64,000 nucleotides of DNA from assembly GCF_013167455.1 (NCBI RefSeq), contig NZ_CP038328.1, one strand, 5' to 3'. The position numbers were made by a program. The stretch is from Escherichia coli O157:H7 (GTDB lineage Bacteria; Pseudomonadota; Gammaproteobacteria; Enterobacterales; Enterobacteriaceae). Shown one piece after another: positions 61,201-64,000 of this stretch (the first letter of the stretch is position 1; each line of letters begins with the position of its first letter).

Positions 61201-64000
61201 GTTGATACGTGAGGCTGATACACGAGAATATGAACTATGGCGTCCGGTCCGTCGCTTTTTCTCCATTGTTTTCCTCATTGTTCTATTAGGTTGCATTCAT
61301 TCACTGATAACAACTATAAAATAAAAGTTATGGCTGTTCTGATACAGGAAAATAAACGTTCATTCTATGGTTACCTCTTCCTGTTATATAGAAGAATTTT
61401 AAACGACAAGTAAGGGAATATAAATGAAAATAACAAAAAATAAAAATGCAACTATAAAAAACAGTCATCAGTCGGCTGCTTTTCAATGTTTACCTTATCA
61501 TTTTCTGGTAATGCTGCCAACTTACTGATTTAGTGTATGATGGTGATTTTAAGGTGCTTGCGTGGCTTCCATTTCCATCAGATGTCCTTCCTGCTCCGCT
61601 ACTGAAGGCGTGGTGCGTAACGGCAAAAGCACTGCCGGACATCAGCGCTATCTCTGCTCTCCTTGCCGTAAAACATGGCAACTACAGTTCACTTACACCG
61701 CCTCTCAGCCCGGTAAGCACCAGAAAATCATTGATATGGCCATGAATGGCGTCGGATGTCGCGCCAGTGCACGCATTATGGGCGTTGGCCTCAACACGGT
61801 TTTACGTCACTTAAAAAACTCAGGCCGCAGTCGGTAACCTCGCGCATACAACCGGGCAGTGATGTGATTGTCTGCGCTGAAATGGACGAACAGTGGGGCT
61901 ACGTCGGTGCTAAATCACGTCAGCGCTGGCTGTTTTACGCGTATGACAGGATACGGAGGACGGTTGTGGCGCACGTCTTCGGTGAACGCACTCTGGCCAC
62001 ACTGGAGCGTCTTCTGAGCCTGCTGTCGGCCTTTGAGGTCGTGGTATGGATGACGGATGGCTGGCCGCTGTATGAATCACGCCTGAAGGGAAAGCTGCAC
62101 GTTATCAGCAAGCGTTACACTCAGCGCATTGAGCGACATAATCTGAATCTGAGACAACATCTGGCAAGGCTGGGACGGAAGTCACTGTCGTTCTCAAAAT
62201 CGGTGGAGCTGCATGACAAGGTCATCGGGCATTATCTGAACATAAAACACTATCAGTAAGTTGGAGTCATTACCTGAGAATAATACCTCCTGGGTAAGTG
62301 AGCAGATACTTTCAGCGCCTCCGAAAGATGTAAATATTCGACTTGGAGTCGGTTCTTTAGAAGGTACAACCGTCTCACATGTTCAGCGATTGCATCATTC
62401 GTTAATCGCAGCTGGTTTGGAAAGTAACCTCACTGTCTATACCGGTGGTCACGATTATGCCTGGTGGCGCGGAGCAATTATTGATGAATTAGCAAATTAT
62501 AATTGCAGGAAGGTATCAAATAATAACTCTGTGTAAAATATCGTTTTATCGTCAGATAACTCTTTCTGCAATATTATTATGGGAGACTATCTCATTTATT
62601 TAGTGATGTCCTTCATTTATGTGATGAAGGACATTATATTACTCATAACATTTCTCGTTGAAAATTTCAGCAATACGCTACAATTGTTTCCCGTTGTTTT
62701 TTAATTTTCTCATCAAAACCTCTGCAATCTCTGCAGGACTGGGTTGTTCAGCCATTTCAGCGGCTACCTGATCTGAACAGAAGCGTAGTGAATCATCATA
62801 AAGAAGGCGATTTACCAAATCACTGGTCAGTCCATGCTTGTCCGGAATAATCCCACACCCACGCTTCGCAACAATTTCTGCATTAACAGAGCGATCTGCA
62901 CCTTCGCCAAACACAATCTGTGGTATTCCACTATACAGCGCTGTCAGGGTATTACCTGCGCCACCGTGATGAATAAATCCATCAGCTCCATTAAGGAATA
63001 CACCCATAGGTATCCAGTCAACCAGACGTACATTTGATGGTAGTTTTCGTAAACCAGTACGAGCATTTATTGCAAGTTGCAAAATGATATCAGCATCAAC
63101 TTCATTTGCAGAATCCATAACCCATGAAATCAGCTCCAGACCATCAACCATTGGTTTTACAGTGCCAAGGCTGATAAGTAAACGTTTCCGATCAGAATCC
63201 CTGTCCCACCATGTTTCCTTTACAGCACCTCCGTTATAAGGAATATATCTCATTGAGATAACCGGTTCTCCAGCATTTTTAAGAATGCTCATACTTGGGG
63301 GAGCAACATCAATCCATGCTAAATCACATAGTGGACCGCTGACTCCATGCCGCCTGTAAGCATTGCTTAAAGAACGGTTTAACATCTGAATATGGGCAGA
63401 TGTATGCGCGAATCCAACAGCCAGCATCACTGAAGGAATTCTATATTTAGCAGCAACCAATGGGCCTGCCGGATCAAGAGGGGGATAGACTATTAAATCT
63501 GGCCTCCATTTTCCTGCAAAATCGATGAGGTTATCTGCCATTTCATCGCTAAAAAAAGAGAAATGACCAATAATATTACTTTTTTTCCTCAACTCTTCCT
63601 GATGGCGATATCCAGCCTCTGAATCTAAACCTGGAACTGCATCAAAAACAACCAGTCCAGCTTCTGCTGCTTTATTCGCGAATTTGCCAGCGCTACTAAT
63701 TACTACATCATGTCCAATTACACGAAAGGCCTGAGCCAGAGAAATCAATGGGTATAACAAACCGTACAGCGGTGGGCCAATAAAAAGAATACGTTTTCGC
63801 ATTAAAAAAGTCCGTCTTCTGCTTACCTGTTTATTTTTCTATCTCTAAGAAAACATAATTAATATTATTTTTATGTGAGCTTATGCACAAAAATAACCAA
63901 GTATATTATCTTCTGGTAGAGATTCAGGATACAGTTTGTAGGAGCTTTCTTTTTTGAACAATGATTTGCAGGACAGTTATGCTAAACTAGCGGAATCAGT

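Follow-up and report, generated by a model that had tools for sequence, protein, structure and literature searches.

Results

Genes and features at the locus

The window, which is the whole stretch of DNA analysed here, consists of 64,000 nucleotides of contig NZ_CP038328.1 from Escherichia coli O157:H7 (assembly GCF_013167455.1). It runs from the chromosomal backbone through a tRNA-Ser(GGA) gene at 34481-34568, which marks the island boundary, into the island. The locus described here is located at the far end of the window, and its features are listed in Table 1.

Table 1. Positions of the genes, repeats and predicted sites at the locus
Feature	Position	Strand	Remarks
Left copy of the imperfect att-like direct repeat bounding the microcin islet	60373..60553		Blocks 60373-60415 and 60503-60553
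Fur-box-like site (predicted)	60744..60762		GATAATGATTATCTCTATC; 2 mismatches to the 19-bp Fur consensus
Conserved hypothetical membrane-protein gene	60854..61324	+	156-aa ORF, intact; PGAP start 60866
5' fragment of mcmM (CPBP intramembrane protease)	61424..61506	+	ATG at 61424; 27 codons kept
Complete IS1, IS1F type	61507..62274	+	768 bp
IRL of IS1	61507-61529	+	Terminal inverted repeat
insA	61562-61837	+	Intact frame within IS1
insB' frame	61756-62259	+	Intact, within IS1
IRR of IS1	62252-62274	-	Terminal inverted repeat
3' fragment of the IroD-like esterase gene mchS1/mcmK	62275..62536	+	86 codons and stop; residues 339-424 of 424
mchA/mcmL-type enterobactin C-glucosyltransferase homologue, intact	62678..63802	-	374 aa; GT1 family domains
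Region upstream of the glucosyltransferase gene, still islet	63803..64000		Islet continues past the window to the second att-like repeat
Partner copy of the att-like repeat	Past the window end, equivalent of 64132-64346		Direct orientation; EDL933 locus

At the EDL933 locus, the remnant is bracketed by the two copies of the att-like repeat, which are direct repeats of each other and match in two blocks, one of 43 nt with 84% identity and the other of 52 nt with 77% identity. The window segment 60400-60546 by itself matches many other E. coli islands with identities of 76-83%. Both the 156-aa ORF and the mcmM fragment lie downstream of the predicted Fur-box-like site. Searches of NCBIfam and Pfam with the 156-aa ORF give no family match. 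The gene encoding it precedes mcmM and has the same direction of transcription in strains Nissle 1917, IBS28 and GPEC856, and this gene and the left flank of IS1 are 97% identical to those of Nissle 1917. The intact mcmM protein is a CPBP family protein of 228 aa, all catalytic motifs of which are gone from the fragment in the window. The sequence-only reading had noticed on this side a gene start that is cut off after 27 codons. This gene start is that of mcmM, and the fragment is additionally frameshifted by the loss of 1 bp in an A-run. It is annotated by PGAP as a truncated CPBP intramembrane protease and marked as a pseudogene.

The element between the two gene fragments has the size (~768 bp), the imperfect ~23-bp terminal inverted repeats, for which 0 matches are expected by chance, and the two reading frames, insA and insB', connected through a -1 frameshift at A6C, that characterize the IS1 family. 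The A6C frameshift motif TTAAAAAACTC in the overlap of the two frames is intact, the insA and insB' frames match NF033558 with E values of 2e-24 and 4e-43 respectively, and in the PGAP annotation the element is an IS1F transposase subject to programmed frameshifting. The right end previously assigned to this element, 62274, is correct, but the left end had been placed 2 bp too far upstream, at 61505 instead of 61507. The 9-bp flanks of the element are TCATTTTCT on the left (61498-61506) and TGAGAATAA on the right (62275-62283); the left flank had been mis-transcribed as TATCATTCT. Comparison of these flanks reveals neither an 8-bp nor a 9-bp direct repeat, and the earlier statement that a target-site duplication is absent holds in spite of the transcription error. 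A target-site duplication of 8-9 bp is a sign of simple insertion, not of the IS1 element itself, and its absence is the outcome expected after deletion or recombination. The two flanks show a partial inverted match (8/11), which is treated as a result of either AT-rich chance or target preference.

On the right side of IS1, the esterase fragment matches the enterochelin esterase model NF007758 at profile positions 340-409 of 418, in agreement with the view that roughly the C-terminal 80 residues of an enterochelin-esterase-like protein remain. PGAP annotates it as a truncated alpha/beta hydrolase. The GQSLGG motif containing the nucleophile serine of the esterase falls in the deleted part, and the fragment is without it. 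The right flank of IS1 is 98.3% identical to the corresponding region of IBS28 and 99.5% identical to that of GPEC856. The esterase fragment is convergent with the glucosyltransferase gene, which is intact and of the IroB family, as had been read from the sequence.

Properties of the glucosyltransferase gene

The glucosyltransferase protein is identical to the IBS28 allele at 368 of 372 residues and to the GPEC856 allele at 373 of 374 residues, whereas its identity to E. coli IroB is 70%; at the DNA level, part of the gene aligns with iroB at 68-69% identity. Because the identity to the alleles of intact microcin clusters is 99% and that to IroB only 70%, the gene is, by sequence identity, an orthologue of mchA/mcmL and not of iroB. 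When the region from 62275 to 64000, which includes the islet DNA upstream of the gene, is used as a query, it is ~98% identical to an intact cluster. Compared with the IBS28 allele, the gene shows 7 synonymous and 4 non-synonymous differences and a shift of the stop codon. The sole difference from the protein of the GPEC856 intact cluster is G110D, which is located in the YPPLG motif. At position 110, 10 of 11 close homologues have Gly and the remaining one has Ala, and the equivalent residue is Gln in more distant solved relatives (SnogD, a rhamnosyltransferase).

Upstream of the gene, a Fur-box search gives a weak Fur-like match at 63854 with 6 mismatches, and a simple promoter scan of this upstream region gives nothing on the strand of the gene. 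The intact protein has one accession in O157:H7 (both EDL933 copies), UMNK88 and AR_0069. One EDL933 copy of the gene has been reported to carry a point deletion (PMC9144400). Unlike this report, both copies encode an identical intact glucosyltransferase in the current RefSeq assembly of EDL933. When iroC, iroD, iroE and iroN were sought near the gene in the window and at the EDL933 locus, none of them was found, and this is the only IroB-like place in O157-type genomes. The iroC gene, which had been described as missing, is thus indeed not adjacent.

Comparison with intact microcin clusters

The clusters of strains IBS28 and GPEC856 were used as intact references, and Nissle 1917 was used for the left side. 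The gene order in IBS28 and GPEC856 is hyp-mcmM-(mcmA)-mchF-mchE-mchD-mchC-mchB-mchI-mchS3-esterase (424 aa)-glucosyltransferase, in which mcmA is not annotated for GPEC856. Nissle 1917 has a complete CPBP gene mcmM, followed by mcmA, mchF, HlyD-type mchE, mchD, mchC, mchB and mchI. Base-level alignment indicates that the mcmM homology ends exactly at the first base of IS1 and that the esterase homology restarts exactly past its last base, with an ambiguity of 1 bp. At the IBS28 cluster locus, the left flank matches up to position 1621 and the right flank from position 12001, and therefore IS1 stands in place of positions 1622-12000 (10.38 kb). At the GPEC856 cluster locus, the right-flank match begins at position 13001, and the replaced distance measures ~10.7 kb. 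In intact clusters, the genes flanking IS1 thus share one orientation and are separated by 10.4-10.7 kb, which indicates that IS1 marks a deletion. The comparison with intact loci proposed earlier therefore permits reconstruction of the deletion, and the interpretation that IS1-mediated deletion or recombination took place, instead of simple insertion, is borne out.

The lost segment contains the rest of mcmM, mcmA, mchFEDC, mchB, mchI, mchS3 and most of the esterase gene; this list is approximate, because the reference clusters differ slightly in content. The functions lost are those of the precursors and immunity proteins of microcins M and H47, of maturation by mchC and mchD, and of export by mchE and mchF. 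Neither the window nor the EDL933 locus contains the precursor/immunity pairs mchB/mchI and mcmA/mcmI, which belong to the segment replaced by IS1. The export genes mchE and mchF and the maturation genes mchC and mchD are likewise absent from the window and the EDL933 locus and present in the intact loci. Microcin genes had been thought to lie possibly beyond position 64000. They are not present there; this position is followed by the other att-like repeat and then by iha and the ter operon, and the microcin genes were in the deleted segment. Judged from its gene content, the remnant cannot make, export or protect against microcin.

Island setting and distribution among E. coli genomes

The remnant is part of the tellurite-resistance/adherence island, of the OI-43/48, SpLE1 type, that adjoins serW. 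In EDL933, its neighbours are POTRA-, AAA- and PAPS-reductase-type genes on one side, and an HTH regulator gene, iha and the ter operon on the other side, with iha ~6 kb from the glucosyltransferase gene. An IS3-family copy is present between the POTRA and DUF4222 genes in EDL933, and the window is without it, as indicated by the coordinate offsets.

Searches of 5,426 complete E. coli genomes indicate that a 3.2-kb stretch of the locus is 100% identical in about 500 of them, which are mostly O157:H7, including EDL933; a misassembly, which had been named as a possible refutation, is thereby excluded. The remnant is carried by O157:H7, O145, O111, O103 and others. The left junction (mcmM'/IS1) is found in 574 of these genomes and the right junction (IS1/'esterase) in 504. 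Both island copies of EDL933 carry the remnant, indicating that the deletion predates the island duplication.

Several genomes carry variants of the right side. UMNK88 has the same left junction, and its right junction reaches 62 bp further into what remains of the esterase gene. The IS1 copy of this strain combines the IS1F and IS1A types in a chimera, in which the left ~345 bp match the IS1 of the window except for one SNP, and the right ~420 bp are ~10% divergent and IS1A-like. This type of junction is unique to UMNK88 among the genomes searched. LS4 also has the same left junction, but the right end of IS1 abuts an IS600 fragment and the glucosyltransferase gene is lost. The IS1/IS600 junction of LS4 exists in 212 genomes, indicating that it reached the mcmM site by IS1 x IS1 recombination. 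In the O157:H7 strain TR01, the O157-type junction is combined with a right IS1 end of the IS1A type, and NCCP 13894 has a second IS1 within the same stretch. Because one left junction is paired with several right junctions, the left junction is the older one and is fixed, and the right side continues to be reshaped by IS1.

Two synthetic junctions, representing simple insertions of IS1 at the mcmM site and at the esterase site, were built and searched for in the same 5,426 genomes. The mcmM-site junction has no true match in them, since the 7 two-piece matches obtained at 91.8% identity represent a different arrangement. The esterase-site junction has no match in these genomes.

Discussion

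Relation to known microcin islets and to the salmochelin operon

To the left and to the right of the break, the DNA is collinear with and nearly identical to that of the MccH47/M islet, and together with the flanking imperfect direct repeats this identifies the locus as a remnant of that islet by descent. The region is very probably a gutted remnant of the MccH47/MccM siderophore-microcin islet, which IS1 entered within mcmM and from which ~10.4-10.7 kb was then lost. It shares with the MccH47/MccM(/I47) islet of E. coli H47, CA46/CA58 and 042 the hypothetical gene, the start of mcmM and the 3' end of the esterase gene. It also shares mchA/mcmL (99% at the protein level), the convergent arrangement of the esterase and glucosyltransferase genes, and the att-like repeats (PMC3191183). 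According to the same source, the H47 islet is flanked by imperfect repeats of 144-148 bp, which are 76% identical to each other and widespread in E. coli, and these are the repeats matched by the att-like repeats around the remnant (PMC3191183). Unlike this islet, however, the remnant lacks the whole core of ~10.4-10.7 kb and has IS1 instead.

Three forms of the islet are known from other strains: the complete form, the form of Nissle 1917, CFT073 and ABU83972 without mcmL and mcmK, and the form of strain 536, which retains only mcmA/mcmI with truncated mcmM and mchF (PMC6776366, PMC7472721). The clusters of Nissle 1917, CFT073, ABU83972 and UPEC 536 are likewise IS-associated truncations of the same islet within larger islands (PMC7472721, PMC6776366). 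The Nissle-type clusters are without mcmL and mcmK and have the toxin, immunity and export genes and mchCD, whereas the O157-type remnant has kept mcmL and lost everything that Nissle keeps. The O157-type remnant is thus the reciprocal of the Nissle/CFT073 truncation and represents a further truncation type of the known islet. The accessible part of PMC3191183 distinguishes three structure types of the H47 islet, which are complete, attR-only partial and empty attC, and the O157-type remnant, with both repeats and an internal deletion, falls outside these three. The terms 'O157', 'EDL933' and 'Sakai' do not occur in that part of the paper (PMC3191183).

In comparative genomics of STEC, the glucosyltransferase gene is given as an 'iroB homolog' or as salmochelin-related, and virulence-gene pipelines call it 'iroB' (PMC9144400, PMC5292798). 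These calls, and the resemblance of the two coding remains to IroB and to IroD/Fes, favour the view that the locus is a degraded salmochelin (iroBCDEN) operon instead of a microcin cluster. The iroA locus (iroBCDEN) indeed shares with it a homologous glucosyltransferase and an IroD/Fes-type esterase. Unlike iroA, however, the locus has no iroC, iroE or iroN, its gene order and neighbours are different, and by identity its glucosyltransferase gene is not orthologous to iroB: the identities to iroB given above compare with 98-99.5% to mchA/mcmL of intact microcin clusters. In addition, the mcmM fragment on the left has no counterpart in iroA, the convergent esterase-glucosyltransferase arrangement is that of the Mcc clusters, and the att-like repeats fit the islet. 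A degraded iroBCDEN operon is therefore refuted by the alignments, with next to no probability left for it. The sequence-only reading had preferred a remodelled siderophore-microcin locus to a canonical iroBCDE operon, and this preference was right.

A search of the accessible literature for an earlier description of the O157 remnant yielded only mentions of an 'iroB homolog'. A homologue of McmL in O157 may reportedly have been noted by Patzer in 2003.

Route of the deletion

Two alternatives to a deletion are a simple insertion of IS1, the target-site duplication of which was later mutated away, and an artefact of assembly. Nothing speaks for either beyond their possibility a priori. The two flanks are 10.4-10.7 kb apart in intact loci, the same junctions are present in about 500 independently finished genomes, and both explanations, which are refuted by the flank mapping and by these genomes, have a negligible probability.

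In the sequence of events proposed here for the remnant, IS1 would first enter the 5' end of mcmM. All of the DNA from IS1 to a point 1,014 bp into mchS1/mcmK, amounting to ~10.4-10.7 kb, would then be lost, and in this second step the esterase gene would lose its 5' four-fifths. The junctions, the lost content and the islet boundaries are observed, but because the intermediate, in which IS1 with a 9-bp duplication is present in mcmM or in the esterase gene and the cluster is still in place, is absent from the 5,426 genomes, we infer the order of the events, and likewise the route. If a single IS1 underwent intramolecular transposition, the IS and one old junction would be kept, one new junction would be formed and no target duplication would arise. 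Such an IS1-promoted adjacent deletion from a single IS1 is somewhat favoured as the most likely route of the main deletion, because it is more parsimonious, requiring two events instead of three.

Alternatively, with the origin from a microcin islet unchanged, two IS1F copies in like orientation, inserted in mcmM and in the esterase gene respectively, may have undergone RecA-type homologous recombination, which would have removed the 10.5 kb and kept a single IS1 with unrelated flanks. This route is a serious candidate, if a less probable one, and is placed as a close second because IS1 x IS1 recombination is demonstrably active at the locus. The chimeric IS1 of UMNK88 shows such recombination, the right flank of LS4 is an IS1/IS600 junction present in many genomes, TR01 has an IS1A-type right end, and NCCP 13894 has a second IS1. 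The variant junctions that are readable, those of UMNK88 and LS4, thus point to IS1 x IS1 homologous recombination and not to transposition, which raises the weight of the two-copy route. On the other hand, this route requires two insertions and a recombination, and no genome among the 5,426 complete ones has either of the single insertions or both. The IS1 of the window is uniformly IS1F-like from end to end and is uninformative on the route. Both IS1-promoted adjacent deletion and IS1 x IS1 recombination are classical behaviour of IS1, reportedly described by Reif and Saedler in 1975. The remnant shares with the classical IS1 deletions an IS1 that is complete and ends precisely at each breakpoint, as well as the lack of a target duplication, and, as in those deletions, one fixed junction is combined with several alternatives on the other side, which is nothing unusual. 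It represents ordinary IS1-associated genome decay in a well-known islet, is widespread among STEC, and is mechanistically nothing new.

Fate and meaning of the surviving glucosyltransferase gene

The surviving glucosyltransferase gene is an orphan maturation gene that is probably carried along as a passenger. If active, the enzyme would C-glucosylate enterobactin as MchA, McmL and IroB do, the activity of this type being the transfer of glucose from UDP-glucose to C5 of the 2,3-dihydroxybenzoyl units. In Nissle 1917, the homologue IroB is able to substitute for McmL, and the chemistry is the same (PMC6776366), which supports the possibility that the enzyme has been retained because enterobactin is still its substrate in EHEC; a salmochelin-like siderophore would then be formed without iroCDEN and might be taken up via catecholate receptors such as the neighbouring Iha. 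The intact ORF, the protein accession common to O157:H7, UMNK88 and AR_0069, the preserved upstream region, the differences from the IBS28 allele, of which 7 are synonymous and 4 non-synonymous, and the location of iha nearby also speak for this. However, G110D alters a motif that is conserved in the clade, even though distant solved relatives have Gln at this position, and divergence among the carriers of the deletion is far too low to measure selection. Moreover, the LS4-type variants have lost the gene, the exporter, the esterase and IroN are missing, only a weak Fur-like site is present upstream, and the literature search found no report of salmochelin production by O157. Retained activity of this kind is therefore unlikely. 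We consider it slightly less likely still that the orphan MchA/McmL-type enzyme would provide a glucosylated, lipocalin-evading enterobactin without iroCDEN, possibly via Iha or other catecholate receptors; if this were true, a gene for microcin maturation would, through the IS1 deletion, have become a gene for siderophore tailoring that acts on its own.

The main value of these results lies in correct annotation. What is called 'iroB' or a 'salmochelin' gene in O157:H7, O145:H28 and other STEC is left over from microcin maturation and does not belong to a salmochelin system, and it is therefore not to be read as an iron-uptake virulence factor. The remnant reading also means that the TAI island of EHEC once held a complete microcin H47/M weapon. 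IS1 brought about its loss at a time when the island had neither spread to different serotypes nor been duplicated in EDL933, and the locus illustrates cleanly how, in nature, one side of a fixed IS1 insertion is reshaped by the element again and again.

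IS1 variants at or near mcmM

UMNK88 carries a chimeric IS1 at the same site in mcmM, the CPBP protease gene that is reduced to a 5' stub in the window. The left ~345 bp of this element differ from the IS1F-type copy of the window by one SNP, and its right ~420 bp are IS1A-like, with ~10% divergence. Its right junction lies 62 bp further into the esterase remnant, the 3' part of mchS1/mcmK. The chimeric structure and the deeper junction are direct evidence for recombination between IS1 copies. Seven genomes, for example that of strain D2 (NZ_CP010137.1 1048361-1049096), have IS1 ~450 bp off an mcmM-like segment of 91.8% identity, and in these genomes IS1 may have acted separately on a divergent copy of the islet.

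In the window, a repeat search indicates that the sequences directly outside the IS1 ends (61496-61506 and 62275-62285) show partial inverted symmetry at 8 of 11 bases, probably because of AT-rich chance or IS1 target preference.

Features in the window and in the loci compared with it
Feature	Location	Strand	Remark
Chimeric IS1 of UMNK88	L004:8108-8875 (UMNK88 locus)		Same mcmM site
107-aa hypothetical ORF of GPEC856	L009:3530-3853 (GPEC856 locus)	Opposite	At mcmA position
tRNA-Ser(GGA) gene	34481-34568		Chromosomal backbone/island junction
AAA-domain gene, split	53972-56652	-	Two ORFs, 722 aa and 171 aa, 4-bp overlap
Fur-box-like site, strong	60744-60762		2 mismatches to 19-bp consensus
Conserved hypothetical membrane-protein gene	60854-61324		Upstream of mcmM
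Glucosyltransferase codon 110	63473-63475	-	G110D

Comparison with the GPEC856 cluster

The G110D substitution is the sole amino-acid change between the glucosyltransferase of the window and the allele of the intact GPEC856 cluster. It is located in a YPPLG motif, where glycine is present in 10 of the 11 close homologues, yet SnogD has glutamine. The GPEC856 cluster is intact except that a different hypothetical ORF occupies the mcmA position. This ORF, for which no family match is found, might represent an alternative module for a microcin or for immunity.

Wider island

The backbone side of the tRNA-Ser(GGA) junction is the infA/aat/cydCD side. The AAA-domain gene of the window is likely split by a 1-bp frameshift, as in EDL933, because it is a single 2,682-bp gene in UMNK88, LS4 and AR_0069. 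Each of the two island copies of EDL933 has an IS3-family element (IS629-like, ~1.3 kb) that separates the POTRA-domain gene from the DUF4222 gene. The window lacks this element (~58027-58613) and therefore derives from another strain.

Upstream region of mcmM

The position of the hypothetical membrane-protein gene upstream of mcmM is constant in Nissle 1917, IBS28, GPEC856 and the O157 type. Its 156-aa product matches no family in Pfam or NCBIfam, and the gene is absent from the islet genes named in the review passages considered. The Fur-box-like site is located 5' of both this gene and the mcmM fragment. The iron-regulated promoter predicted from this site may at present drive no more than the 156-aa ORF, the defunct stub of mcmM and transcription that runs on into IS1.
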